Source of the DNA: Vibrio penaeicida
GTDB lineage: Bacteria; Pseudomonadota; Gammaproteobacteria; Enterobacterales; Vibrionaceae
Assembly (NCBI RefSeq): GCF_002933855.1
Contig: NZ_BFAQ01000011.1
Location: 29,442-61,441, forward strand
DNA length: 32,000 nt
Reading direction: 5' to 3'
Of the stretch, positions 9,352 through 20,571 are shown piece by piece; position 1 is the first letter of the stretch; every line of letters begins with the position of its first letter. Made by a program: the position numbers and the translations under genes. The notes beneath the pieces are model-generated. The model had not been told where the DNA came from. It saw only the letters and a program-made list of their open reading frames with translations, and did not search any database.

Positions 9352-9366
9352 TAGGAGTCGTGAGCA

Positions 9367-9600
9367 ATGGCTACGTTTATCGTTACATTTGGATTTTTCT
9401 TGGCAATTGTCACCGCCATGTCTGTCGGTTACATCTTCCAAAAGAAAGTTGTGAGAGGAAGTTGTGGCGGATTGGATGCCGTTGGCATTGATAAAGTGTG
9501 TAACTGTCCAGAACCATGTGATGCGCGTAAAAAGCGTGAAGCACGTGAGGCAATCCGTGCTGAAAAAATCGCTGCTTGGGAAAAAGATAAAATTCTCTAA
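9367..9600 (+). CDS. nqrM: (Na+)-NQR maturation protein NqrM
   Basis: 77 aa; one TM plus Cys-rich CGGLDAVGIDKVCNCPEPCD motif; adjacent to apbE. Confidence 0.93.
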   Translation: MATFIVTFGFFLAIVTAMSVGYIFQKKVVRGSCGGLDAVGIDKVCNCPEPCDARKKREAREAIRAEKIAAWEKDKIL

Positions 9601-9641
9601 GCTTTTAGCTTAAGAAGCAGATAAAATCGAAGATGTTAAAA

Positions 9642-9672
9642 GTTCAGCCGTTGCTGAGCTTTTTTATTTTTT
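9642..9672 (+). terminator. Rho-independent terminator after nqrM
   Basis: gttcagc-cgtt-gctgagc stem followed by a T-rich run ttttttatttttt. Confidence 0.8.
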
Positions 9673-9724: not shown

Positions 9725-10099
9725 TTAAATCGATGGGCTGGTTAGCGTAACGGAGTAGCGCCATGGTTTCCCGTTTTCAGTATTGATTTCCATGCTGGCA
9801 TTTTTACCATCGTTTGTACTCAGTGTCAGCGACGGCAGTTCTAATGAAGTTGGTCCACCTCTCTCATTACAAGTAACGTTGCCGGTGAGCTCTACATTAC
9901 CTAATGAATCTGGCGTTATCTTCGCGAGGAATTTGCATTCCCCCGATACCGCTGCTCCCCATTCATTCGCTTCTAGGAAAGCTTCAAAATATTGGCGCTG
10001 ACCTTGTCGTTCTAGCGTAATACATGCCTTGTAGTCAAAATTAGCAGCTGCTGGAAAGCTGGTAGTGACCAACAATAAACACGTCATCCGAATGTTCAT
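9725..10099 (-). CDS. Small secreted/periplasmic protein of unknown function, last gene of the candidate operon
   Basis: 124 aa with an N-terminal signal peptide (MNIRMTCLLLVTTSFPAAA); starts about 10 bp downstream of the AsmA-like gene. Confidence 0.7.
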   Translation of the reverse strand: MNIRMTCLLLVTTSFPAAANFDYKACITLERQGQRQYFEAFLEANEWGAAVSGECKFLAKITPDSLGNVELTGNVTCNERGGPTSLELPSLTLSTNDGKNASMEINTENGKPWRYSVTLTSPSI

Positions 10100-10108
10100 T
10101 CTTCACCT

Positions 10109-13100
10109 TTACTTCTTTATAGGGGTTCCGCGCGAAATCATTTCACACAGGTAGCTTCCATCGCTATCAAGCGGTTTTTCAACTAGCCAGCGAATCGGTG
10201 AAATAACTGGGCTGGTAGTGAATCGCACGGACGTTTCTAAGATCGCAGAAAACGGCACACTTAAGTCAAAGTCTTCAAAATTACCGGAAACTTCAATCGG
10301 TGTTTGAAGGCTAAATATCTGGGCTGATTTGGGTCTTGGCGCGAGATAAAGATCGAACGTTCTATCCGAGTAAGAAGCTGAAAAGTTACCATTTACTTGA
10401 ATACGCGTTGTGTCCAGTAACAAGTCCCGCTGCTGCAAATCACCATTTGTGATATCAAAGCCGCCTGCCACGCAATTTAGAACCGATTCCTGTTCCTTGG
10501 TAAAGCTAGGCAATATTGCATCGGTTAAATTGACGGCCCAAAGGTCGATTAAGTCCGCTTCAAACTCCTGTGGCCAAATAGAAAAACCAATAAACCCGTT
10601 AGCGTTATTCATGAGATTATCAGGAGTGTTGGCCAAACTGGTTAAATTAAAGTAAGTACTGAGATTTCCACCCATATCTGTCTTAGTATCGATACGTCTA
10701 GCGATAATACCGTAGTCAAAATGATGTACTTGCCCTTGAATAGCGATATCGAATTGGTCTTGTCGAGCTTCAATTTGCCCAGCCAAAGAAAAGGAGCCGC
10801 CAGGAATACTGATTTTTAATGGAGAGACACGTAATTTTCCATCCAATAGTGATAGCTTCGCGGATGTTGCGCCTAACCAATCATCACCTGAACGAACATT
10901 ACTTACCTCTATATCCATTTCTACGTTTGCCCATGATAAGCCTTCAGGGCTAACGACAAGTGGTTGTGTTGTGCTTTCTTCTACAGTTGGCTTGCGACTA
11001 GAGGTTTCTCGGTTAGCAGAATTCGGTATCCAAGCTTTCCAGTTGCCCACTTTAAAGTCGTCCATTTGAATCTGCGATGATGACAGGCTTAATACAATGT
11101 CAGGACGCGAATATTTCCCGAGTGGGCGGAATTGCCCAGTACCAATAAGCTCACTCTTACCGATATTGAGGACAAGTTGCTGTAATTGATATTGAACGTC
11201 ATCTAGCGATAACTTGGCCGATAAATCAATTGGACCATAAGGCGGAAGCTTGACCCCTGTGAACTCGTTAAGCCTATTTAAATTAGGAATAGCCGCGTTT
11301 AATTGGAGTTCCAATTGAGTGAAGTCCAGTGGTAGGGCAATGTCCGTTGAGGCTTCAATTTTTATATCACCAAGGGTAAAAAAGACATTAGCAGGTAAGC
11401 TTTCTGAAAGCCTATTGGCTTCTTTCAGAGAAACCGATTGGATGCTCAGTGTTGTTTTTTTATCCTGTACGGAGCCCGTCAGTAGCAGCTCGGTGTTGAG
11501 CTCCGGTCCGGTATGAAAATGCCCTTCCGAGATGTGAATGTCCATCGATTTTCCGGTATAGATATCCGGAACCTTGAGATACCCACCTTCAAGTAAAGCT
11601 TGTACTTGAGTCATCTCCATGAATTCAAGTAACGTTTTTCCTGAAAGTGATAAGCTTACTCGGGCACTATCTAATGCCATTTCCATGTCATCGGCGATGC
11701 CAAAGCTTTTAGCGATAGCAGCAATATTCGGTGAGTCAGCTTTAAGGTTAAGCGTTGAGGATATTTGAGCAGCGTTGATGCTAACAGCAAGATCGCCTGT
11801 CATTAGGTTGTCGGCGAGGCGCATTGAAAACGGCGCAGGTTTCATTATGCCGTTTCGAAGCTTACCCGAGAAGGTGATGTGTTTGAGGCTTTGATTTGAC
11901 CATCGCATATCACCGACATTTAGGTTGATATCCGCATCCACAATAGTAATGTCGTTACTCAAGATAGGAACGGAAAGGTTGACCCCTTGAGTTGGTATGG
12001 CTTGTTCTACTTCTGGTAACGTTTCTTCTTGTGCTAACAAGGCGAGTTGATTGAAATCCAATATAGAAAAATCAGCATCGATATCCACAAATGAGCGTTT
12101 AGGATCGTTTAACCATTTGAGTGCTAATGTCCCTTTGCTGTCCATAACACGAAGGTTTTGAGTGGAAAGTGTCAGCCACTCATTTTGATGTTCTAAGGTC
12201 GCATTGAGCTTTAGAGGTCCGCTAGCCCCTGACTGCGTACCTAACCAAGGTGAAAGTTTTGCGATATTCGGGCTCGATATGTCCAGCTTAAATTGGCTGC
12301 CAACTTGCCAGCGTGTTTCAGGGAGAGAGCCAAACGCGTGAATATTCAGTATTGGGCTGTCTAGTGTGATGGTCGTTTCCCAATCTCGCTTGTTGATGAT
12401 GTCTGACAGTGCCCCCGCTTTAGCTGTGATGGTAGCAGGCACACCTTGGAGGTTACCGCGAATATCGACATCGACTGGCTGGTTCATTCCTGCTTTAAAT
12501 CGCGCTTTCTCAATGGCATAGTTTGCACCTTCTGTCCAAGATATAGCGGCATTATCCAATGCAAAAGCGAGGCGACTGTTGTCTATCCATTCCTTAAGTT
12601 TGGTGCCTTCAGTTTGGACACTCAGTAACGCACTTTCAAGGTGACCATCTGCTTCTTCGATACCCGCCAGCCAATGAGCGAGTTCACCGAGTGGAGAGTC
12701 TTGGGCACCAAGCTCTATATTTAAAGTTGAAGACCATTCGGTTGCGTCAATTGATGCCTTCCCTCGGAAAGGAACTTGAGCGATATCGGCAGAAATGGGC
12801 GCGTTCAATGTTCCTTTCTCGCTTACGACGGCAAGAGATAGGTTTTTTATTTCTGTTCCAAGCCCTAATATTTCTCCTATAGAGACAGAAAGGTTGGTTT
12901 GGGTAGAGACCAGCCATTGATCAAGAGCTTGCTGCAGCGGGGACTTTTGCGGTGGTGCAGACGCATACCCCATCATTTGCTGTTCTGGCTCTGGTTGTAG
13001 CCAAGGCTTAAGATCGATCACAGGAATCGTGAGTTTGCCATCAATGGTGTTGACGTCACCAAGTGCAATGTCCAGATACCCTTCTGCTTGTGTGATAGGG

Positions 13101-14101
13101 CTATCCACGTTAAGCGACTTAATGTGCAGTGCGCCCTGTTTTGCCGATATGTCAGCGGAGATACTAAGTGGAGCTATATGATAGACATCGAGCCCCAGTA
13201 AGGCTTCAATAGGCTGTGTGTCGAGCCAGTCTAATTGGATGTTTGCCGTTGAAAGCGCTTTCCCGTTTGGTTGAATATTGGAATTGAATTCCAGAGAAGC
13301 GCCTGCGAAATGACCTTTGACGTCAAGAGAGCCTGTTTGGGCATTGAGGAGCTTTTCTATTTCTCCCGTGACACTCAGGTTGTATTCTTGACCTAATGCT
13401 GCCCCTTTGGTGTTGAGATGCCAAATTTTATCATCTTTGGTTAAATCAAATTCATCCAGAAACCAATCCACATAAGTTTGGGTATTCTGATCTTCGTAAA
13501 TCACACTTAAGCTTTTGGCTACGGCTTTCTCACCGAGTTTGACCGTCCAATGCGCTAGCTTGCTGTCTGAATTTAAGGGGCTATCTGAATTTAAACTGCT
13601 CTCTGAATTGTCGCTGCTTTCTGGTGCCACTCTGGTTACTTGGGGAGCAACAGATTCCGCCTGCTTTCCAATTGCCCAGTTTTCATTGCCATCCATATCT
13701 TTTGCTAGATAGAGATGGATCCCTTCCAAATCAATGTAATCAATGAATAGTGTGTTTTCGAATAAGGGGAATATCGCCACTTTTGCCGAAGCGTGCCCCA
13801 CACGCAGCAGCGGTTGCCACTCTATTGAAGGAATATTCGCGACTTCAATATTATTAATTTCCAACTCAGGCCTAAACGATACATGAAATCGGATATCGCC
13901 ATCAATTTTGACAGGTCGATTGATCTGGTTTTCGAGAATGCTGGATATTTTTGGCTTATGCGCCGTTAGGTTTATGTTGAACCCTACGGTAAGCGCGATA
14001 GCCAGTATTGCAATGAATGAAAGAAGGGTTATACCCAAATATTTCAAGGTTTGAAGCAGAACAAATGGCATTTTAGTTTTGGTGGCTGTTGGCGTATTCA
14101 T
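10109..14101 (-). CDS. AsmA-family protein (large, 1330 aa)
   Basis: Single N-terminal TM (TLLSFIAILAIALTVGF), AsmA N-terminal motif (RPVKIDGDIRFHVSFRPELEINNIEVANIPSIE) and typical C-terminal AsmA region (GDLQQRDLLLDTTRIQVNGNFSASYSDRTFDLYLAPRPKS). Confidence 0.88.
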   Translation of the reverse strand: MNTPTATKTKMPFVLLQTLKYLGITLLSFIAILAIALTVGFNINLTAHKPKISSILENQINRPVKIDGDIRFHVSFRPELEINNIEVANIPSIEWQPLLRVGHASAKVAIFPLFENTLFIDYIDLEGIHLYLAKDMDGNENWAIGKQAESVAPQVTRVAPESSDNSESSLNSDSPLNSDSKLAHWTVKLGEKAVAKSLSVIYEDQNTQTYVDWFLDEFDLTKDDKIWHLNTKGAALGQEYNLSVTGEIEKLLNAQTGSLDVKGHFAGASLEFNSNIQPNGKALSTANIQLDWLDTQPIEALLGLDVYHIAPLSISADISAKQGALHIKSLNVDSPITQAEGYLDIALGDVNTIDGKLTIPVIDLKPWLQPEPEQQMMGYASAPPQKSPLQQALDQWLVSTQTNLSVSIGEILGLGTEIKNLSLAVVSEKGTLNAPISADIAQVPFRGKASIDATEWSSTLNIELGAQDSPLGELAHWLAGIEEADGHLESALLSVQTEGTKLKEWIDNSRLAFALDNAAISWTEGANYAIEKARFKAGMNQPVDVDIRGNLQGVPATITAKAGALSDIINKRDWETTITLDSPILNIHAFGSLPETRWQVGSQFKLDISSPNIAKLSPWLGTQSGASGPLKLNATLEHQNEWLTLSTQNLRVMDSKGTLALKWLNDPKRSFVDIDADFSILDFNQLALLAQEETLPEVEQAIPTQGVNLSVPILSNDITIVDADINLNVGDMRWSNQSLKHITFSGKLRNGIMKPAPFSMRLADNLMTGDLAVSINAAQISSTLNLKADSPNIAAIAKSFGIADDMEMALDSARVSLSLSGKTLLEFMEMTQVQALLEGGYLKVPDIYTGKSMDIHISEGHFHTGPELNTELLLTGSVQDKKTTLSIQSVSLKEANRLSESLPANVFFTLGDIKIEASTDIALPLDFTQLELQLNAAIPNLNRLNEFTGVKLPPYGPIDLSAKLSLDDVQYQLQQLVLNIGKSELIGTGQFRPLGKYSRPDIVLSLSSSQIQMDDFKVGNWKAWIPNSANRETSSRKPTVEESTTQPLVVSPEGLSWANVEMDIEVSNVRSGDDWLGATSAKLSLLDGKLRVSPLKISIPGGSFSLAGQIEARQDQFDIAIQGQVHHFDYGIIARRIDTKTDMGGNLSTYFNLTSLANTPDNLMNNANGFIGFSIWPQEFEADLIDLWAVNLTDAILPSFTKEQESVLNCVAGGFDITNGDLQQRDLLLDTTRIQVNGNFSASYSDRTFDLYLAPRPKSAQIFSLQTPIEVSGNFEDFDLSVPFSAILETSVRFTTSPVISPIRWLVEKPLDSDGSYLCEMISRGTPIKK
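13564..13617. repeat. Three imperfect in-frame 18-bp tandem units inside the AsmA-like gene
   Basis: ctgtctgaatttaagggg / ctatctgaatttaaactg / ctctctgaattgtcgctg; encodes NSESSLNSDSPLNSDSK. Confidence 0.7.
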
Positions 14102-14205
14102 AGCACGTTATACGGTGTGTCTGATGTCATATTAGGCGCAAAGGACAATAGCACAGACCCAAGCAAAAATATAAAGTTATGATCGCGATAATGAGAGTAC
14201 CGCAC

Positions 14206-14850
14206 CTAGTGCCGAGTACTTCGTTTTATGTAGATGCTTACGCGACGATTGGCTTTTCTTTGAGCTGCGAGTTCCACTGTATCTGATATTGTTGGGTAGG
14301 TATCTGCGTACGCGACAGCACTCAGTTTTGTCTTGTCGATAGACAAGGAAATCAGCTGTTTTGTTACGCCTATTGCTCTTGCACCGGAAAGCTCCCAGTT
14401 GCTATCGAAATGGTCGTTATGAATAGGTAAGTCATCTGTATGACCTTCGACGACAATTTCCTTTCCCTCCAAACTTGTACGTTCTATAGACGACGCAAAA
14501 ATTGTCAACAGCCGAACGCCTTCATTGCTTAACTTTGCGGAACCTTCTTCGTAAAGTGCTTCTGTGTCGAAATCCACTTTAATTCCATCAGGCATTTTCG
14601 TTAAGGAGATAGGCTCATGCTCAGTCGATTGCTTTAGGGCTTGAATGAGCAGGGTCATTGGCATCTCGGCTTTTCGATCCGATAGCGCGTTCCAACTGGC
14701 TTTCAGCTCTTCAAACTTTCCTTGGTCGATTTGAGAAGTGGCGAGAATAACGATGAAGAAAGTCATCAAAAGTGTAATGAAATCACTGTACGTTACTAGC
14801 CAGTCATTTTCTTCTCGGACATCGGCACCACTCTGTCTTCTGCGCGGCAT
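14206..14850 (-). CDS. MotB-like stator protein with OmpA/MotB peptidoglycan-binding domain
   Basis: 214 aa; TM with conserved ion-binding Asp context NDWLVTYSDFITLLMTFF (D23), and EGHTDDLPI...SNWELSGARA...NRRVSIYI OmpA-C/MotB motif. Confidence 0.93.
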   Translation of the reverse strand: MPRRRQSGADVREENDWLVTYSDFITLLMTFFIVILATSQIDQGKFEELKASWNALSDRKAEMPMTLLIQALKQSTEHEPISLTKMPDGIKVDFDTEALYEEGSAKLSNEGVRLLTIFASSIERTSLEGKEIVVEGHTDDLPIHNDHFDSNWELSGARAIGVTKQLISLSIDKTKLSAVAYADTYPTISDTVELAAQRKANRRVSIYIKRSTRH

Positions 14851-14852
14851 AA

Positions 14853-15632
14853 TTAGGACTCCAGCCTTTTCTTGGGAGAGAGATAGCTGTTCATCGAGTC
14901 TTTGATGTGCATATCAGGTTGCTTTTCCGTCATCATCACAAAGGCTTGGATCTGCATATCTCGATGGCGAAAATTGTCGTCAGATTTACGCCTAACATTG
15001 ATCGCAGAAGGCTTGAACAAAGCCTGAGCAAGTAGAGTGCCGTATAACGTTGTAAGTAGGGCAATCGCCAGCCCTTTCCCCATGGTAGCCATGTCACCAT
15101 CTAAGCTATCCAGCATAACAATCAACCCAACCAGTGTGCCTATCATGCCAAATGCAGGAGAGAAATTTGCCATAGTACTCAACACATTGGCGGGTTGTGC
15201 TTCTTGCACTCGCTGGCTTTCGTTACTTTCATCAAGCAAATTACGAAGTGCCTTCCCTTTGTAGCCTGTGCCCAGTAACTCTATGGCCATTGCAATGAAA
15301 GGGTCTTTTAACTCTTTATTTGTTAAGGTTTTTTCCAAGCCAGTAATTCCTTCGGTGCGATACACCTTGTTCCATTCTAATGAGCGAATGATAGAAGAGT
15401 GCTTCAGTTTGGTTTCATTCCTACCATCAAATAAGCTTGCAATAACCGCTTGAATGGCTTTAAAGAAAAGAGGGTAAGAGTAGCTAATTAGGGCTGCAGT
15501 TGACGTTCCTCCTGCAACAATCAGAAAGCTGGATAAGCTAACAAATAGCCAATAATTATCGGTGCTTGAAACCACAGCGGTAGTCAAGACAGCGGCAGAA
15601 AACAGCCATCCCGTAATGGTACTCAAAGACAT
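14853..15632 (-). CDS. MotA/PomA-like stator protein
   Basis: 259 aa; PAFGMIGTLVGLIVMLDSL...MGKGLAIALLTTLYGTLLAQALFKP is the TM3-TM4 signature of MotA/PomA; upstream TM pair and cytoplasmic loop present. Confidence 0.93.
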   Translation of the reverse strand: MSLSTITGWLFSAAVLTTAVVSSTDNYWLFVSLSSFLIVAGGTSTAALISYSYPLFFKAIQAVIASLFDGRNETKLKHSSIIRSLEWNKVYRTEGITGLEKTLTNKELKDPFIAMAIELLGTGYKGKALRNLLDESNESQRVQEAQPANVLSTMANFSPAFGMIGTLVGLIVMLDSLDGDMATMGKGLAIALLTTLYGTLLAQALFKPSAINVRRKSDDNFRHRDMQIQAFVMMTEKQPDMHIKDSMNSYLSPKKRLES

Positions 15633-17467
15633 TAGGCTAGTTCCTCCAGCTCACTCATTTTAAACTTATTTTCTTCTAACGCTTGACGCATGACCCTAAC
15701 AATATCTTGCTTGGCAGCGTTTCTATCGTTTTCGTTGACGTCCGTTGCCATCTCTAATTCACTGATTACCATATTGACGTAGCGGTTTGGACAGCCTGAA
15801 ATCAGCGCTTTTACGCGTTCCACTGGCATATCTGAAAAGGCGTTAGCAAGTGTTTGAGCATCAAGATTTCGGATATGATTGCTAATGATTTGTGTCGGTG
15901 TTCGCCAAATGTCATCAAAGCTATAAAAACGTTGTTTTAGCTGCACATAAGCACCCGGAGACGTTTCTTTTAACTGGGTTAATAGGTCGTTTTGTTTGGT
16001 GATACTTAACCCATCGAGGATTTGAGTCAAAACGAAAGGACCATCAGTAGGTAGCGTTCTAAAGTCTGGAACGGTTTGAGCTTTCGTCGCCAACGAAGAA
16101 GCAACATCATTAAAGGTTGCCATAGGAAGAGTGTCTAACCGAGCAATTTCCATCGCCAATTCAGCCTGACGTTCCATTGGGTATAGAGAAAGCAGCGCTG
16201 CAGAATTCTCTGAAGAAAGTTGGCTAATCACCATAGCCTGTATACGCTCAGGCTCGTGCTCCAACAGCCAGCGGATTTGGTTGATGGACAGGGTCTCAAG
16301 AAAATCAAATGGTTGTGACTTTCGGGTTGAGTGTGCGTGAGGGTTTGAGTCGACAAGGAGCTGCTTGAATGCAGAAACGTGCTTTACGACTTGCTCGCGA
16401 TCATTTGGGTTTTGCTCCAAATAGCTTACATAGCTAGGTATCTGAGAAGTCAGGCTAGGGTACATAGTGGTGAACATCGCTCTCCCAAGCTCTTGATATA
16501 CGCAAGCAAACATAGGCAGATTTTGTTCGTTTAGGCTGAGTTTTCTGATGGTCTGATCGACTTGATGAGGCTCGCCTAAGCTGAATTTGACTAATTCTTG
16601 GCGACACGCCTCGTGTTCATAATACTGATGGGAAACTAAGGGCTCGGCTTGCAATGAGGAAGCAGGCTGAACATCGTTTACAGTATCGTTGTTTGGTCCT
16701 GCAGAGCGTGCGCGAAGCAGCATGACGATAAGAGTAATTATCACCAAGCCAAGCGCAATGAGCGTTAGCCAAAAGTAATCTAGCCAAAATACTTTCTCCT
16801 GAATTTGAGTGCTGTCTTTGTTGGGAACCTCAAATACGGTGCGGATGATGTCCAGCGAATCGCCTCTAAGTGGGTTGTAATCCACTTTTTGAATCAGAAG
16901 TTTTTTTAGGAGCTGTACGTTTTCGCTGCTCACCTTTTCGTCCAGCAATAGTGTTACGGACAACTTGTTGATTTCAGTAGAGAGAGGTTTGGCTTCCCTT
17001 TGGTTTTTGCTGATGTTAGCCGTTGGGTTGGGTGCCGGCGTATTTTGCTGGGGGGGAGGCGCTGGCTGAGCCATGGTCTGAACTGGAATCTCAATGTTCT
17101 CTTTGGCGGGCATGCCGCTTAATCCAGGCAGTTTAGGGACGAATTCAGCTACTCTTCGAACAGGTGCTGCAATGGTTGTCGTTCTTTGAGGGGCTCCAGT
17201 TTGATCGGCTTTAGTTTCGGGTGTTTTGGCTGCAGATGCATTAGCTACAGGTACGTTGATTCCCGAATTCTCCTTTTGTACGAACTCCGATTGAATGGTC
17301 AAGACATGCTTGTTGGGTCCTATGATACGTTCAATATCGTCATTTATGCGCGCTTCTAATCTCGCAGAGAATTCAAGCGCTTGGATCTCACTGGATGATT
17401 GCGCAAGGCTAAAGCTAGATATACAAAAAGGCAGAATAAAGGCAAGTTTAACTAATGGGTTCATCAT
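15632..17467 (-). CDS. FliF C-terminal-like / FliG-like fusion membrane protein
   Basis: About 611-616 aa (ORF track start 17482; the 17467 ATG gives a TAATG overlap with the upstream gene). Signal peptide; FliF ring-domain-like halves LEARINDDIERIIGPNKHVLTIQSEF and INKLSVTLLLD...LLIQKVDYNPLRGDSLDIIRTVFE; TM WLTLIALGLVIITLIVMLL; FliG-middle-like WLLEHEPERIQAMVISQLSSENSAALLSLYPMERQAELAMEIARLD; FliG-C-like FYSFDDIWRTPTQIISNHIRNLDAQTLANAFSDMPVERVKALISGCPNRYVNMVISELEMATDVNENDRNAAKQDIVRVMRQALEE. Confidence 0.82.
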   Translation of the reverse strand: MMNPLVKLAFILPFCISSFSLAQSSSEIQALEFSARLEARINDDIERIIGPNKHVLTIQSEFVQKENSGINVPVANASAAKTPETKADQTGAPQRTTTIAAPVRRVAEFVPKLPGLSGMPAKENIEIPVQTMAQPAPPPQQNTPAPNPTANISKNQREAKPLSTEINKLSVTLLLDEKVSSENVQLLKKLLIQKVDYNPLRGDSLDIIRTVFEVPNKDSTQIQEKVFWLDYFWLTLIALGLVIITLIVMLLRARSAGPNNDTVNDVQPASSLQAEPLVSHQYYEHEACRQELVKFSLGEPHQVDQTIRKLSLNEQNLPMFACVYQELGRAMFTTMYPSLTSQIPSYVSYLEQNPNDREQVVKHVSAFKQLLVDSNPHAHSTRKSQPFDFLETLSINQIRWLLEHEPERIQAMVISQLSSENSAALLSLYPMERQAELAMEIARLDTLPMATFNDVASSLATKAQTVPDFRTLPTDGPFVLTQILDGLSITKQNDLLTQLKETSPGAYVQLKQRFYSFDDIWRTPTQIISNHIRNLDAQTLANAFSDMPVERVKALISGCPNRYVNMVISELEMATDVNENDRNAAKQDIVRVMRQALEENKFKMSELEELA

Positions 17468-18054
17468 TATTTTTCCAGCCATTTCATCATTCGTTTTACT
17501 TCAGGGAGCTCAGGGTTGTGCTTCAACGCTTGTTGCCAAGCAATGATGGCATCTTCTACTTTGCCCAGTTTGTAAAGAACACTCCCCTTTGTCGCAAGAA
17601 TGTTTTCTGGCGTTTCTGTTAGTGGTTGAGCTTGTTCAAGTAGAGTCAGTGCGGCATTAAAATCGCCTTTCACTGCATTTTCTTGAGCTTCTAATTTGAG
17701 TGCGAGTGACCTCGCTTCATTGAATGGAGATACAGGTTCCTCCCCATTTTCTTCTTGAGAAGGTGCGGCATCTTCAGTTTGTGGGGCAGTTTCCTCAGGA
17801 AGAGGAAATGCTGACTCTTCCTGAGACACGGTTGTGTAAGTGGGCTCAGCACTGTCTGTCTCGATGGTTAACACCATATCCGGATCAGACAAATCAAATT
17901 GCACACCTGATTCATACTGGTTGCCCTGCATGTGTATGGTTATTTTTCCATCTTTCATTGCAACTCGTTGTCGAGTTTCTGATTGAGATGCTGATTCAGC
18001 CCAAGCTGGATTTGTCAGCAAAAATAGACAAGCACAAAGGATCGTATTCTTCAT
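17467..18054 (-). CDS. Secreted/periplasmic TPR-repeat protein
   Basis: 195 aa; signal peptide MKNTILCACLFLLTNPAWA; C-terminal TPR (ALTLLEQAQPLTETPENILATKGSVLYKLGKVEDAIIAWQQALKHNPELPEV). Confidence 0.8.
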   Translation of the reverse strand: MKNTILCACLFLLTNPAWAESASQSETRQRVAMKDGKITIHMQGNQYESGVQFDLSDPDMVLTIETDSAEPTYTTVSQEESAFPLPEETAPQTEDAAPSQEENGEEPVSPFNEARSLALKLEAQENAVKGDFNAALTLLEQAQPLTETPENILATKGSVLYKLGKVEDAIIAWQQALKHNPELPEVKRMMKWLEK

Positions 18055-18057
18055 GGA

Positions 18058-19083
18058 TTAAAACCTCACGCCTAACGTTAGATCGAACGCAGGGTTGCCG
18101 CCCCATGTGCCGTTTTCAAAGGTGTCTTTGCTGATGTACATCAAACCGAGATCGACAAAAATATCCCCTTGAGTAAAGAAGGCATTTCGTGGTGGTGACA
18201 ATTCTAGCCCTGCACGTACGGCGATTTTTTGTTTGTTCTCAACAAACTGAAAGCCCGAACCCGCGTAAACAGATAACCAGTCATCGGTAATCGCATACAG
18301 TGCTCTAGCTTCTGCTCCAAAGCCTTGAATCGAAAAATTTGTACTGCCGTCAAAGTTGCGAAAATAGTTGCCGATAAAGGCAAAGTGAGCGCGTTCTGAT
18401 GGGGTGTGCCCGCTGTAGTAGCGTATAGAAAGGTCCGTTACATTTTGTATGTCTTCGCCATCAGTTGAGGTACCATTGATACCAATGTAACCAAGAGCGA
18501 CTCCGACTCCGCTCTCCTTTACATTCTTCTTTGCGAGCACATCCGGATCCTCCTTTATGTCGAAGTTTCCCGTCCATACCACTTCGTTATTTTGAGTGCT
18601 AACTAGTGACATAGTGATGTTGTGAGTATTGTCGCTAAGAGGCGAACGCCAGGTTAGGAAGGCGTCGACACGTATTTTCTTTCCGAGCTTACGCAGTTCA
18701 TCATTACTTGAAAGCCCATGCTTAAACTTTACGTTGGAGGCAGAGAGGTTGACTTGTGTTTTTCCACATTCGATACAGCTGCGTACTTTGATCCCATTGT
18801 TTTTCATTTTGGCAGTTAGGATCGATGTCAGCTTGAGCAGCTCGGTTTTTTCTTCATCCGTTACGGCTTTACCCTCGAAATACAAGGCGACACTTTGGAT
18901 CTTAGCTAAAGACTTGTTGTCTAAAATGTCGAACCAAAGATCATCGTGTTCTAAGAATTCTTCAACTGTTTGTGCTTCATTATCTTTTGCGGAGAAAAGT
19001 GCATTTAAAGGTTTGGAAAAAACAATCGAAGAGTAAGAAATTAAAAGGGTGCTAATGGTTAGAGTCGTGACTTTTTTCCACAT
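18058..19083 (-). CDS. Outer-membrane protein with N-terminal CsgG/FlgO/TolB-N-like domain and C-terminal beta-barrel-like region
   Basis: 341 aa; signal peptide; SVALYFEGKAVTDEEKTELLKLTSILTAKMKNNGIKVRS...LGKKIRVDAFLTWRSPLSDNTHNITMSLVSTQNNEVVWTGNF; C-terminal alternating beta-strand region ending in aromatic LTLGVRF. Confidence 0.65.
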   Translation of the reverse strand: MWKKVTTLTISTLLISYSSIVFSKPLNALFSAKDNEAQTVEEFLEHDDLWFDILDNKSLAKIQSVALYFEGKAVTDEEKTELLKLTSILTAKMKNNGIKVRSCIECGKTQVNLSASNVKFKHGLSSNDELRKLGKKIRVDAFLTWRSPLSDNTHNITMSLVSTQNNEVVWTGNFDIKEDPDVLAKKNVKESGVGVALGYIGINGTSTDGEDIQNVTDLSIRYYSGHTPSERAHFAFIGNYFRNFDGSTNFSIQGFGAEARALYAITDDWLSVYAGSGFQFVENKQKIAVRAGLELSPPRNAFFTQGDIFVDLGLMYISKDTFENGTWGGNPAFDLTLGVRF

Positions 19084-19096
19084 AATGAAACTCCAT

Positions 19097-19140
19097 TCAG
19101 ATCGAGGCTAGGGAAAAGACCTCGAACTGATAGGCTAGGG
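19097..19140. promoter_or_regulatory. Inverted repeat plus direct repeat in the 5' leader of the candidate operon
   Basis: tcagatcgagg (19097-19107) / cctcgaactga (19120-19130), 10/11 complementary; direct repeat aggctaggg at 19105-19113 and 19132-19140. Confidence 0.5.
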
Positions 19141-19347
19141 GACTCACTCTATTTGAATCGCCTTGCACACATGATCCCGAGGGCTGGGTATGAAGAGTAT
19201 TTTGTTAACCCTTTGGATTTCTTGCAATAAACCATTGATCTGATGATTAAACGCATGGCGTGCTTTGTTTAGATAGGGGTATGTAGCTTGAAGTGATTTT
19301 CCGCCGTTTTGAGTGATCTTTGTATATGTAGAAATGGTAGGTGTAGA

Positions 19348-20571
19348 TTAGCGAGCAACGAGGCGGTTTCGACCTTCTTCTTTTGCTTGATACAACAGAT
19401 CGTCAGCATCCCGAATAATTTCTTCTAGGTTTTGCTCTTCATTGCCAGAGCTAACACCAATACTCACTGTGAGATGAATTTGTAAATCTTCGTATTGAAC
19501 AGCCGTTTTCTCTATTCGTTGGCGCATCTTGTCTAGGCGACTTTGGAATTCTTGATAATCCCCACAGTGTTGAATACAGAACTCTTCACCACCAAATCTC
19601 ACCGCAATTTCATTTTTGAAGTAGATGGATATAATTTGCGCCACAGTAACCAGTGCTCTGTCGCCGCCATCATGACCATAGGTATCATTCACTTTCTTAA
19701 AGAAGTCGATATCAATCATGGCGATATTGCGATTGTCACAACATTTATTGTTGTTCTCACCGAACAAGTAGCGACGATTCCAAAGACCAGTTAACGCATC
19801 TTGGTTAGCGATGCGATAAAGCTCGTCGGTGGCGTCTTTCATATCCAGAATGTGTTGAACTCGACAATAGAATTCTTCTTGGTTGAAAGGCTTATAAAGG
19901 AAATCGTTAGCACCAGCTTTTAGAAATCGCGCCGTCATCGTGCGGTCGTTATTGCCAGACAGGCCCAGAATAGCCAAATGATTTCGATCATACTGATTTC
20001 TAATTTCTCTGGTCATAGTAATGCCGTCTTTATTCGGCATGTCATGATCGGTAATTATCATAGTGATGTCTGGGTTTTCCGCTAAAATATCAATAGCTTG
20101 CTGCCCATCATTTGCTTGCAAGGTATCAATGTACTGATGCTCAAGGAGATACACTACATGGTTTCTAACGGTAATTGAGTCATCGACAACCAATGCTTTG
20201 TGTGTATGGTTCGCCATCAATCGCTTTAGAAGTGGGATCAAATAGGATACAGAAGCGCTACTGTCTTTGGTGATGTAATCGAGTACACCTTTAGCAATAA
20301 CATGTTCACGGACGTTTTCATTAAACTGAGCGGTGAGAACAATCGCACGAACTTTATGCGATAAAACGAGATCGATAATTTCCCCGTCTGGACCGTCGGG
20401 TAAGCAATAATCCAATACAGCGCATAGAAAGTTAGTATCTTGTCTTATTATGTTATTTGCCGCTTCTAACGACTCCGCTAAGACAACTTCAAAACCAATT
20501 TGCTTAAGCTGCGAGTTAAGGTAATTACGAAAGGCTCGACTATCCTCGACAACCAAAATCCGATTTAGCAC
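19348..20571 (-). CDS. Two-receiver-domain GGDEF response regulator (putative diguanylate cyclase)
   Basis: 407 aa; two REC domains (ILVVEDS...VLDYCLPDG; ALVVDDS...IITDHDMPNKDG) and GGDEF domain with RFGGEEF. Confidence 0.93.
   Translation of the reverse strand: MLNRILVVEDSRAFRNYLNSQLKQIGFEVVLAESLEAANNIIRQDTNFLCAVLDYCLPDGPDGEIIDLVLSHKVRAIVLTAQFNENVREHVIAKGVLDYITKDSSASVSYLIPLLKRLMANHTHKALVVDDSITVRNHVVYLLEHQYIDTLQANDGQQAIDILAENPDITMIITDHDMPNKDGITMTREIRNQYDRNHLAILGLSGNNDRTMTARFLKAGANDFLYKPFNQEEFYCRVQHILDMKDATDELYRIANQDALTGLWNRRYLFGENNNKCCDNRNIAMIDIDFFKKVNDTYGHDGGDRALVTVAQIISIYFKNEIAVRFGGEEFCIQHCGDYQEFQSRLDKMRQRIEKTAVQYEDLQIHLTVSIGVSSGNEEQNLEEIIRDADDLLYQAKEEGRNRLVAR

Follow-up and report, generated by a model that had tools for sequence, protein, structure and literature searches.

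A conserved set of five minus-strand genes in a 32,000-nucleotide (nt) stretch of the Vibrio penaeicida genome (contig NZ_BFAQ01000011.1; hereafter the window) encodes what we consider, with a probability of about 60%, to be a free-standing rotor-stator motor of the flagellar type that operates without a flagellum. The unit comprises the genes for an outer-membrane (OM)-like protein, a periplasmic tetratricopeptide repeat (TPR) protein, a predicted fusion of FliF and FliG, and the MotA and MotB subunits of a stator. The parts list, the functional residues and the genetic linkage of these genes could be read directly from the data, and no export gate, rod, hook or filament genes were found in the cluster in any lineage examined. 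A preliminary description of the window had proposed an uncharacterised apparatus with a MotAB-type motor and a dedicated FliF/FliG-like partner at its centre, and the domains, residues and linkage reported here bear this out. The features of the motor genes are listed below in window coordinates; all genes of the cluster are read on the minus strand.

18058..19083, minus strand: gene 1, OM-like secreted protein of 341 amino acids (aa), an open reading frame (ORF) without a Pfam or NCBIfam family
17467..18054, minus strand: gene 2, periplasmic TPR protein of 195 aa (Pfam TPR_2, TPR_11, TPR_1)
15632..17482, minus strand: gene 3, predicted fusion of a FliF-type ring-building motif 3 (RBM3), a transmembrane (TM) helix and FliG, 616 aa (Pfam, PDB sequence search, AlphaFold2 (AF2), Foldseek)
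16838..17395, minus strand: predicted RBM3-like periplasmic domain of the fusion, residues 30-215 (AF2)
16994-17263, minus strand: predicted disordered loop of the fusion, residues 74-163 (AF2, predicted local distance difference test (pLDDT) <50)
17108-17131, minus strand: LPGLSGMP motif of the fusion, residues 118-125 (family alignment)
16703..16786, minus strand: predicted single TM helix of the fusion, residues 233-260 (hydropathy and AF2)
15635..16645, minus strand: predicted cytoplasmic FliG-like part of the fusion, residues 280-616 (Pfam, AF2, Foldseek)
14853..15632, minus strand: gene 4, MotA/PomA-type stator A subunit, 259 aa, four TM segments (Pfam MotA_ExbB)
14206..14850, minus strand: gene 5, MotB-type stator B subunit, 214 aa, one TM segment (Pfam MotB_plug and OmpA)

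The product of gene 3 consists of a signal peptide with an invariant alanine at the likely -1 position, one periplasmic ring-building motif (RBM), one TM helix and a cytoplasmic FliG with N-like, M and C parts, in this order. The longest ORF starts at 17482 (616 aa), and the NCBI annotation starts at 17467 (611 aa). FliG_M (51.6 bits, E = 1.2e-13) and FliG_C (52.1 bits, E = 8.9e-14) were recognised by Pfam above their cut-offs, while YscJ_FliF_C scored 23.0 bits (E = 1.2e-4), slightly under the cut-off of 23.8. In a HMMER search of the PDB sequences, the protein matched FliG (3hjl, E = 3e-12) as well as an engineered Vibrio FliF-FliG fusion (8z4d), the latter in two separate stretches, of which residues 184-269 align to FliF 434-520 of 8z4d (the last strand-helix-strand of RBM3 and the second TM helix) and residues 389-607 align to the FliG part. 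The AF2 model, for which 32 diverse family members served as input, has a pLDDT of 79. Its periplasmic elements (helix 30-54, strand 59-70, strand 168-181, helix 186-200 and strand 209-215; pLDDT >90) follow the alpha-beta-[loop]-beta-alpha-beta order of a ring-building motif, and they precede the TM helix and three helical cytoplasmic domains, namely a FliG_N-like helical domain (280-378), FliG_M (~393-470) and FliG_C (~481-615). When the model was searched with Foldseek, the cytoplasmic part aligned to full-length FliG (8umx_B) over 323 of 328 columns (E = 9e-7), and the periplasmic part retrieved the RBM3 rings of FliF (7bk0_B, E = 4e-3; 6sd3_Q; 8z4d_1) with E-values from 4e-3 to 2e-2 and template modelling scores on the target of 0.50-0.57 for 6sd3_Q and 8z4d_1.

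Taken together, the profile matches and the predicted structure identify gene 3 as a natural fusion of a FliF-type RBM3, a TM helix and a complete FliG. Canonical FliG is a soluble protein of ~330-350 aa that docks on the C-terminus of FliF and is encoded in a flagellar operon. The fusion departs from this format: with 616 aa it is longer, it carries a signal peptide and has a TM helix behind a periplasmic domain, and its gene lies outside flagellar operons. Engineered Vibrio FliF-FliG fusions form membrane/supramembrane (MS) rings (PMC10941966), and a covalent linkage of the two proteins is therefore compatible with ring assembly.

Only a single RBM is present in the fusion; RBM1, RBM2 and the beta-collar of FliF are absent, and a disordered loop of ~90 residues (74-163), rich in proline, glutamine and alanine, takes the place of the beta-collar. 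This periplasmic loop is fast-evolving except for the motif LPGLSGMP that sits within it. Among the 32 diverse members L118, P119 and G120 of the motif are nearly invariant, and the pattern [LIVM]PG[LIVMF] occurs upstream of the TM helix in 126 of 135 full-length relatives. The motif is perhaps a docking peptide, possibly for the TPR protein. In the cytoplasmic part, the FliM-binding EHPQ(R) motif is not kept (the sequence reads E-P-E-R against EHPQ of Aquifex FliG), and FliM or FliN genes were found in none of the examined cluster loci. In the torque helix, R567 is the equivalent of E. coli R281 and E575 that of D289. The former position is basic and the latter acidic in all ten family members compared.

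The product of gene 4 has four hydrophobic segments and matches Pfam MotA_ExbB with 70.6 bits (E = 1.3e-19, cut-off 22.9); its PDB matches include MotA (8ucs, E = 5e-28) and PomA (8brd, E = 5e-23). The best NCBIfam model is PomA (128 bits, E = 3e-37, cut-off 341), followed by MotP, with a marginal match to TolQ (E = 0.008). The product of gene 5 has a single TM segment and matches Pfam MotB_plug (62 bits, E = 3.9e-17) and OmpA (48.9 bits, E = 8.3e-13). Its nearest NCBIfam models are MotD and MotB, with MotD the best at 147 bits (cut-off 283). By these comparisons the pair is assigned to a divergent subfamily of flagellar-type stators.

Flagellar genetics has defined two classical charge pairs between stator and rotor, MotA R90 with FliG D289 and MotA E98 with FliG R281. 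By alignment, the MotA-like protein keeps R88 and E96 of PomA, which correspond to R90 and E98 of E. coli. The R90 position is basic in all nine MotA orthologues, and the E98 position is a glutamate in the seven closer orthologues and an asparagine in the two distant ones. Since R90 and E98 are kept in MotA and the equivalents of R281 and D289 in the fusion, both classical pairs are available. The prolines P151 and P199 of PomA (P173 and P222 in E. coli) are aligned in all nine orthologues, the GxxGxxxG motif and the threonines T158, T185 and T186 of PomA are retained, and the segments GMIGTLVG and LLTTLYG are identical to those of PomA. All Na+-driven stators share these threonines, two of which are replaced by alanine in H+ stators (PMC10374538); the stator described here is probably Na+-driven. 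In MotB, the channel aspartate (in TYSD; SD or AD), NWELSxxRA and NRRV are conserved in nine orthologues. As judged from the alignments, every class of residue that a stator needs is there: those that conduct ions, form the plug, anchor the unit to peptidoglycan and make electrostatic contact with FliG.

The MotA proteins of two distant loci, L024 and L026, have an alanine at the position of PomA T185 and an asparagine at that of E96, and their fusion partners keep the basic and acidic residues of the torque helix. Because of the alanine at the T185 position these distant members look H+-type, which suggests a switch of coupling from Na+ to H+ and an altered charge pairing within the family.

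The order of the five genes is colinear in at least 10 independent lineages, and it is these five, the OM-like, TPR, fusion, MotA and MotB genes, that form the conserved unit. They stay linked across families of the Gammaproteobacteria and, in shuffled order, outside this class. The core order was observed in V. nigripulchritudo, V. agarivorans, Aliivibrio fischeri, A. logei, A. finisterrensis and Moritella, and also in a Shewanellaceae metagenome-assembled genome (MAG), a Saccharospirillaceae MAG and the metagenome contig L025; for the Vibrionaceae, Moritella and Shewanellaceae loci it was established by tblastn with the seven proteins of the window. The arrangement at individual loci outside the window is as follows.

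L023, V. agarivorans: core order; OM-like homologue recovered by the family profile
L025, metagenome contig: core order; OM-like protein with 24% identity (E = 2e-21), CxxC and C-terminal RF kept
L028, Saccharospirillaceae MAG: core order; OM-like protein with hhalign E = 1.7e-44
L024: shuffled order; 1073 aa, TPR, 186 aa, 274 aa, MotA, MotB, fusion
L026: shuffled order; MotA, MotB, TPR, 199 aa, 337 aa, fusion
L016: shuffled order; MotB and MotA divergent from a 320-aa protein and the fusion

An exhaustive profile search with the fusion family gave 7353 matches and, at E<=1e-30, 193 clusters at 50% identity. Among the best 150 relatives, 135 have a length of 530-777 aa and the architecture signal peptide, RBM, TM helix and FliG, with the TM helix upstream of the FliG part. 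The family members come from V. agarivorans, Vibrio sp. SCSIO 43136, A. fischeri, A. logei, A. finisterrensis, Moritella sp. JT01, the Shewanellaceae and Saccharospirillaceae MAGs and a Deltaproteobacteria MAG. In addition, a scan of genome contigs with one peptide pattern yielded eight loci, and a scan of metagenomes with a distant subfamily yielded seven mostly short loci. The sites of the cassette differ between species, with torYZ-like genes next to it on chromosome II of A. fischeri and the nqrM-dinB interval as its location in V. penaeicida.

The seven genes of the preliminary description and an upstream response-regulator gene are all under purifying selection (dN/dS, the ratio of nonsynonymous to synonymous substitution rates, 0.02-0.39 between two V. 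penaeicida strains). The cluster is more than a chance assembly, since the core is colinear in at least 10 lineages, its genes are under purifying selection and no intrinsic terminator was found inside the block. We rejected the idea that the cluster is what remains, in degenerate form, of another flagellar system, because the architecture of the fusion is family-wide (135 of the best 150 relatives), the ORFs are intact and dN/dS is low.

Two observations concern the surroundings of the cassette in other lineages. Just upstream of the cassette in the Shewanellaceae MAG UBA2521 (L003-L005, 5992-7752) there are transposase fragments (HTH_Tnp_1, rve, HTH_21), a finding that fits horizontal movement. 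In one distant subfamily (L021, 11701-16407; L018, from ~4025 to the end of the contig), what follows the fusion gene is not MotAB but a giant secreted-type protein that may serve as an alternative partner or output; the L021 protein has 1568 aa with FG-GAP and fn3 repeats.

The TPR protein has a signal peptide ending in AWA-E, an acidic low-complexity middle part and TPR repeats at ~120-190, which were recognised by Pfam TPR_2 (32.5 bits, E = 6.9e-8) and also by TPR_11 and TPR_1. The TPR and fusion genes adjoin each other in the core loci as well as in L025, L027, L028 and the short contig L006, and they are near each other in L024 and L026. In all core loci the gene next upstream of the TPR gene encodes a homologue of the OM-like protein, with identities of 40% in A. 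fischeri, 34% in the Shewanellaceae MAG and 24% in L025, and an hhalign E-value of 1.7e-44 to the L028 member.

The OM-like protein starts with a signal-peptide-like N-terminus, followed by a predicted N-terminal periplasmic domain (~40-185; nt 18529-18966). Residues 191-341 (nt 18061-18513) form eight amphipathic alternating segments that end in GVRF, and the C-terminal residue of the family is a phenylalanine, or a leucine in two members (Moritella L014 and L028). The region 189-316 of the V. nigripulchritudo orthologue matched Pfam OMP_b-brl below threshold (E = 0.008). Sub-threshold matches to FlgO (PF17680) were obtained for four members of the family in the same region of the profile (~76-125), with E-values between 8.5e-4 and 0.2; the highest score, 19.6 bits, is under the cut-off of 22.6. 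Our reasoned guess is that the protein combines a FlgO-like periplasmic domain with a small eight-stranded OM beta-barrel. All seven aligned members, with identities as low as 20%, share an invariant CxxC motif (C103 and C106; nt 18766-18777), an indication that the periplasmic domain has a disulfide or binds a metal.

The MotA and MotB subunits are orthologues of V. fischeri motA2 (VF_A0186) and motB2 (VF_A0187), with 59% and 48-49% identity, and on chromosome II of strain ES114 these two genes stand in the same five-gene context. Insertion mutants of motA2 and motB2 in ES114 have normal soft-agar motility (PMC3948606), and the two genes are not activated by FlrA and were called unique among sequenced vibrios (Brennan et al., 2013, PMC3948606). 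Whereas they have been published as an isolated pair of flagellar stator paralogues, they are here part of a five-gene cassette. No mention of VF_A0181-VF_A0185 was found in the searchable literature, and the supplements of two V. fischeri papers contain no data for VF_A0183-VF_A0185. Likewise, the literature searches revealed no account of a non-flagellar, naturally occurring FliF-FliG fusion that has its own stator, and a recent MotAB phylogeny does not treat this group (PMC12505986). Of this non-flagellar cassette of flagellar rotor and stator parts, only the motA2B2 pair was met in the literature searched.

In the mechanism that we propose, the fusion would oligomerise through RBM3 into an inner-membrane ring that is equivalent to a miniature MS-ring and the upper part of the cytoplasmic ring (C-ring) in a 1:1 ratio. 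Units of the MotA5B2 type, fixed to the peptidoglycan, would use the flow of Na+ (in the marine members) to push FliG_C and thereby turn or strain the ring. The periplasmic face of the ring would carry the long flexible loop with LPG(L/M)xxxP where FliF has its beta-collar, and would be coupled through the TPR protein to the 341-aa OM-like protein. The loops and these two proteins would link the ring to the outer envelope, as the load or as a bushing or scaffold like the T and H rings of Vibrio. The motor module lacks the FliM/FliN switch site, the export gate, the rod, the hook and the filament, and its output is therefore not swimming. It would rather be a force-dependent process in the periplasm or the OM, under regulators of the surface-lifestyle or cyclic di-GMP (c-di-GMP) type. 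A fuller version is offered more tentatively, at somewhat below even odds: a self-contained rotary machine with an MS-ring/FliG-like rotor and dedicated stators, with neither export gate nor axle, in which torque would pass through the loops and the TPR adaptor to the OM protein, and which would define a new class of envelope machine. The apparatus had been described beforehand as spanning the envelope and doing work at the OM. Its motor core conforms to the first part of this description, while the OM end is conjectural; the second part goes further than the data, the OM location of the 341-aa protein being suggested by sequence features and sub-threshold matches.

Several points weigh against a free-standing motor. 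Ring formation, rotation and all protein-protein contacts are inferred, and the assignments of the OM-barrel and the FlgO-like domain are based on sub-threshold matches and sequence patterns. The alignment of the OM-like family to FlgO of V. agarivorans was not significant (hhalign E = 0.25), a search of the PDB with the family profile gave no match, and the AF2 model of the protein, built with four close homologues, reached a pLDDT of 35 with no usable fold. The scores of MotA and MotB are far under the NCBIfam equivalog cut-offs. Two of the five classical charged residues of FliG are kept in the fusion, the others being replaced (K264 by A, D288 by S and R297 by N). No MotAB genes were present in the available flanks of L021, L027 and the short contig L006. 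Expression data are limited to a ~2-fold decrease of motA2B2 in a V. fischeri biofilm model with RscS overexpression (PMC10804989). Finally, the flgT, flgO and flgP neighbours of the cassette in V. agarivorans keep a link to flagella alive, and could reflect either a chance insertion or a functional hint.

A non-rotary transducer of the Tol-Pal or Ton kind is an unlikely alternative, though the best of those considered. MotA5B2 would here turn and tug at the FliG-like domain of a monomeric or small-oligomer anchor, and a conformational pull would be transmitted by the periplasmic part of the anchor to the TPR and OM proteins with no ring being formed. Precedents exist in the other known 5:2 motors outside flagella, namely ExbBD-TonB, TolQR-TolA, AglRQS-GltG/J and GldLM, all of which work without a large rotor ring (PMC12505986). 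The long disordered periplasmic linker is reminiscent of TonB and TolA, and the TPR and OM partners resemble the layouts of Agl-Glt and Tol-Pal. Yet the periplasmic domain is specifically RBM3-like, a fold of ring-forming proteins, the N, M and C domains of FliG, which polymerise around the flagellar rotor, are all present, and the stator belongs to the flagellar clade. More generally, the cluster shares with Tol-Pal, Ton, Agl-Glt, GldLM of the type IX secretion system and Zorya a motor of the MotA/ExbB family with a B subunit that reaches the peptidoglycan or periplasm, the genetic coupling to periplasmic TPR-type and OM proteins, and a presumed delivery of ion-motive energy across the periplasm. 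These 5:2 motors differ in that they act on a TonB/TolA/GltG-like rod, on GldM or on the ZorA tail, and none has a FliG/FliF-type rotor, whereas the cluster has a stator of the flagellar clade and a bona fide FliG as partner. No TonB or TolA domain was identified in the cluster by Pfam.

It is quite unlikely that the genes encode accessory or alternative parts of the flagellar motor, with the stator set and its FliG-like partner acting on the polar motor as a sink, a brake or a condition-specific rotor. MotA and MotB are of the flagellar (PomA/MotP-like) and not the ExbB/TolQ type and their partner is FliG/FliF-like, and the 341-aa protein has sub-threshold similarity to FlgO, with c-di-GMP proteins encoded nearby. 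The cluster of V. agarivorans, moreover, abuts flgT-flgO-flgP and flgBCDE. Here the cassette lies directly downstream of flgT and near flgO, flgP, flgNMA, cheVR and flgBCDE (L023, 1-13127), and this is the only lineage with flagellar genes beside the cluster, there being none nearby in nine of the ten. On the other hand, the fusion has its own membrane anchor and RBM and therefore cannot take the place of FliG beneath the FliF ring, the EHPQR motif is missing, and the V. fischeri motA2/motB2 mutants mentioned above swim as the wild type, with no activation of the genes by FlrA (PMC3948606).

A comparison with the polar flagellar motor of Vibrio, which has FliF, FliG and PomA/PomB at its core together with a T ring of MotX/MotY and an H ring of FlgO/FlgP/FlgT, brings out what is shared and what is not. 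Both have an RBM3-type domain, a TM helix and the N, M and C domains of FliG, here in one polypeptide (compare 8z4d), and a PomAB-like stator with the threonines of the Na+ site, the channel aspartate, the plug and an OmpA-like anchor. The pairs of arginine and glutamate in the stator and of arginine and an acidic residue in the torque helix of FliG are common to the two, as is a periplasmic repeat-protein partner and possibly a FlgO-like, OM-associated partner. Unlike the polar motor, the cluster lacks RBM1, RBM2, the beta-collar and the FliM/FliN binding motif, as well as the export apparatus, rod, hook, filament, L and P rings and FliL. In V. fischeri it is also outside the flagellar regulon and dispensable for swimming, and its genes form a compact cassette at a site that varies between taxa.

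The preliminary description had treated seven genes as one unit, adding to the core an AsmA-like gene and a gene for a small secreted protein. An ORF scan of the window recovered all seven minus-strand ORFs with the starts and ends given there. In the 5' to 3' direction, the junctions are 3 nt (OM-like to TPR), -1 (TPR to fusion), -1 (fusion to MotA), 2 nt (MotA to MotB), 104 nt (MotB to AsmA-like) and 9 nt (AsmA-like to small gene). The domain calls for the TPR, FliF/FliG-like, MotA, MotB and AsmA proteins were upheld by Pfam, with YscJ_FliF_C just short of its cut-off, and the OM barrel was deduced from sequence patterns. If all seven genes made up one apparatus, the motor might energise an AsmA-like bridge, for example in lipid transport to the OM, with help from the small protein; this we consider very unlikely. 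The AsmA-like protein has 129 bits to Pfam AsmA (E = 2.5e-37, cut-off 29.8) in three stretches and a TM segment at residues 22-40, and NCBIfam gave as a named subfamily only AsmA PRK10833, with 52 bits against a cut-off of 412. The small protein has a signal-peptide-like N-terminus (PAAA-NF), and neither it (124 aa) nor the OM-like protein (341 aa) has a Pfam or NCBIfam family.

In favour of a seven-gene apparatus, the genes are on the same strand, the gap of 104 nt contains no terminator, V. nigripulchritudo has the same arrangement, both additional genes are under purifying selection (dN/dS 0.10 for the AsmA-like gene and 0.09 for the small gene), and AsmA-like proteins such as TamB, YhdP and YdbH are generally known to span the periplasm. 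AsmA-like bridges with small periplasmic partners are exemplified by E. coli YdbH with YnbE/YdbL. The locus resembles this system in that a large, N-terminally anchored AsmA protein is followed, here after 9 nt, by a small secreted protein, and differs from it in that the AsmA-like protein has no named subfamily, the small protein has no family and the link to a motor is restricted to one clade.

Against it stands the distribution of the two genes. Only in V. penaeicida (L008) and V. nigripulchritudo (L007, L009) do they come after motB, in two strains of each species and at the same chromosomal site, and orthologues of the small gene were found only in V. nigripulchritudo (52% identity) and the second V. 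penaeicida strain. In the flanks of the core, no AsmA-like gene was present in the three Aliivibrio species, Moritella, the Shewanellaceae MAG and V. agarivorans, nor in the Saccharospirillaceae MAG, L024, L025 and L026; the large proteins encoded beside the core in L003 (787 aa) and L024 (1073 aa) are either unrelated or without a family match. Because V. penaeicida and V. nigripulchritudo are sister species, the association counts as one event. The spacer between motB and the AsmA-like gene (104-172 nt) is the only sizeable gap and hence the only non-compact junction. It contains a partly conserved segment and no terminator-like hairpin or fold, so that co-transcription is possible, and the two genes may be co-transcribed with the motor in this clade. 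We nevertheless treat the AsmA-like and small genes as a separate two-gene unit that neighbours the motor in one Vibrio clade. The comparison of gene neighbourhoods that had been suggested as a check therefore speaks for the five-gene core and against the seven-gene unit.

A Zorya-like anti-phage system built on a MotAB-type motor is extremely improbable: the MotB-like protein matches the ZorB models of PADLOC (best E = 2.3e-19), but these matches reflect generic MotB/OmpA similarity, the other six proteins have no PADLOC match (no ZorA, ZorC or ZorD), the MotA-like protein of 259 aa is without the long ZorA tail, and no nuclease or effector domain was detected by Pfam.

The remaining features of the region are listed below.

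10109..14101, minus strand: AsmA-like protein, 1330 aa, N-terminal TM anchor (Pfam AsmA)
9725..10099, minus strand: small secreted protein, 124 aa, no family (ORF, signal-peptide-like N-terminus)
19084..19347, minus strand: intergenic region of 264 nt upstream of gene 1, candidate promoter region
19348..20571, minus strand: response regulator/diguanylate cyclase with two receiver (REC) domains and a GGDEF domain (Pfam Response_reg, GGDEF)
9638..9663: GC-rich hairpin with an 11-base-pair stem and T and A runs on either side
9360-9599, plus strand: nqrM, small ORF after apbE; the V. nigripulchritudo counterpart carries Pfam NqrM

The eight minus-strand genes lie between nqrF-apbE-nqrM on the plus strand and dinB with a RecQ-like helicase, as identified with the help of the Pfam annotation of the syntenic V. 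nigripulchritudo locus. The GC content of the block is in line with that of the flanks. No intrinsic terminators were predicted inside the block. The sole strong one is the hairpin at 9638-9663, past the last gene, which is likely a bidirectional terminator that serves both the nqr/apbE/nqrM transcript and the convergent minus-strand block. Upstream of the block, the region 19084..19347 is the one long stretch without coding sequence and the probable promoter region of the cluster; no match to the sigma-70 consensus was found in it, and an Rfam scan of the window gave no matches.

The REC-REC-GGDEF gene, located 264 nt upstream of gene 1 on the same strand (Response_reg, E = 1.9e-35; GGDEF, E = 9.7e-34), encodes the most conserved protein of the region, with 92% identity in V. 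nigripulchritudo, where it is kept beside the cluster, and a dN/dS of 0.02. Among the NCBIfam models it comes closest to CbrR, which regulates bile resistance in Campylobacter (243 bits, cut-off 600). The protein may regulate the cluster. Its gene was considered as part of the operon and is treated here as a neighbour, since the regulator found at this site varies between lineages. In A. fischeri, a pair of genes for an OmpR-type response regulator and a histidine kinase is found directly upstream of the cassette on the same strand (L001, 6120-8179), and a pair of the same type is found ~1.4 kb upstream on the same strand in the Saccharospirillaceae MAG (L028, 2901-4863), where V. penaeicida has the GGDEF regulator. 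A HAMP-SpoIIE regulator is encoded near the cluster in L024. In the Deltaproteobacteria MAG (L027, 6456-6797), a PilZ protein is encoded divergently beside the pair of TPR and fusion genes, with no MotAB within 8 kb. These neighbours suggest environmental or c-di-GMP control, and the PilZ and GGDEF proteins hint at a c-di-GMP control analogous to that of YcgR on flagellar motors.

To our knowledge, all characterised FliG/FliF rotors are flagellar, and all characterised non-flagellar motors of the MotA/ExbB family are without a rotor. If the fuller version, a self-contained rotary machine, is correct, the cluster would join Tol-Pal, Ton, Agl-Glt, GldLM and Zorya as a new class, and no earlier class has reused the rotor of the flagellum. 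Such a machine would have descended in reduced form from the rotor-stator unit that came before the flagellum, or else be a relative of that unit that has survived. A conserved cassette that unites a stator of the flagellar type with a one-polypeptide FliF-FliG rotor and lacks secretion and axial parts would show that a rotor-stator unit can exist and be selected for alone. The finding bears on the origin of the flagellar motor, since it raises the question of whether torque generation could predate the filament and makes this question an experimental one. The system is small, with five genes and a one-protein rotor, and it occurs in the tractable A. fischeri ES114, for which motA2/motB2 mutants exist; this makes it an attractive minimal system for structural and single-molecule studies of torque, and it could reveal a new ion-powered function of the Gram-negative envelope.

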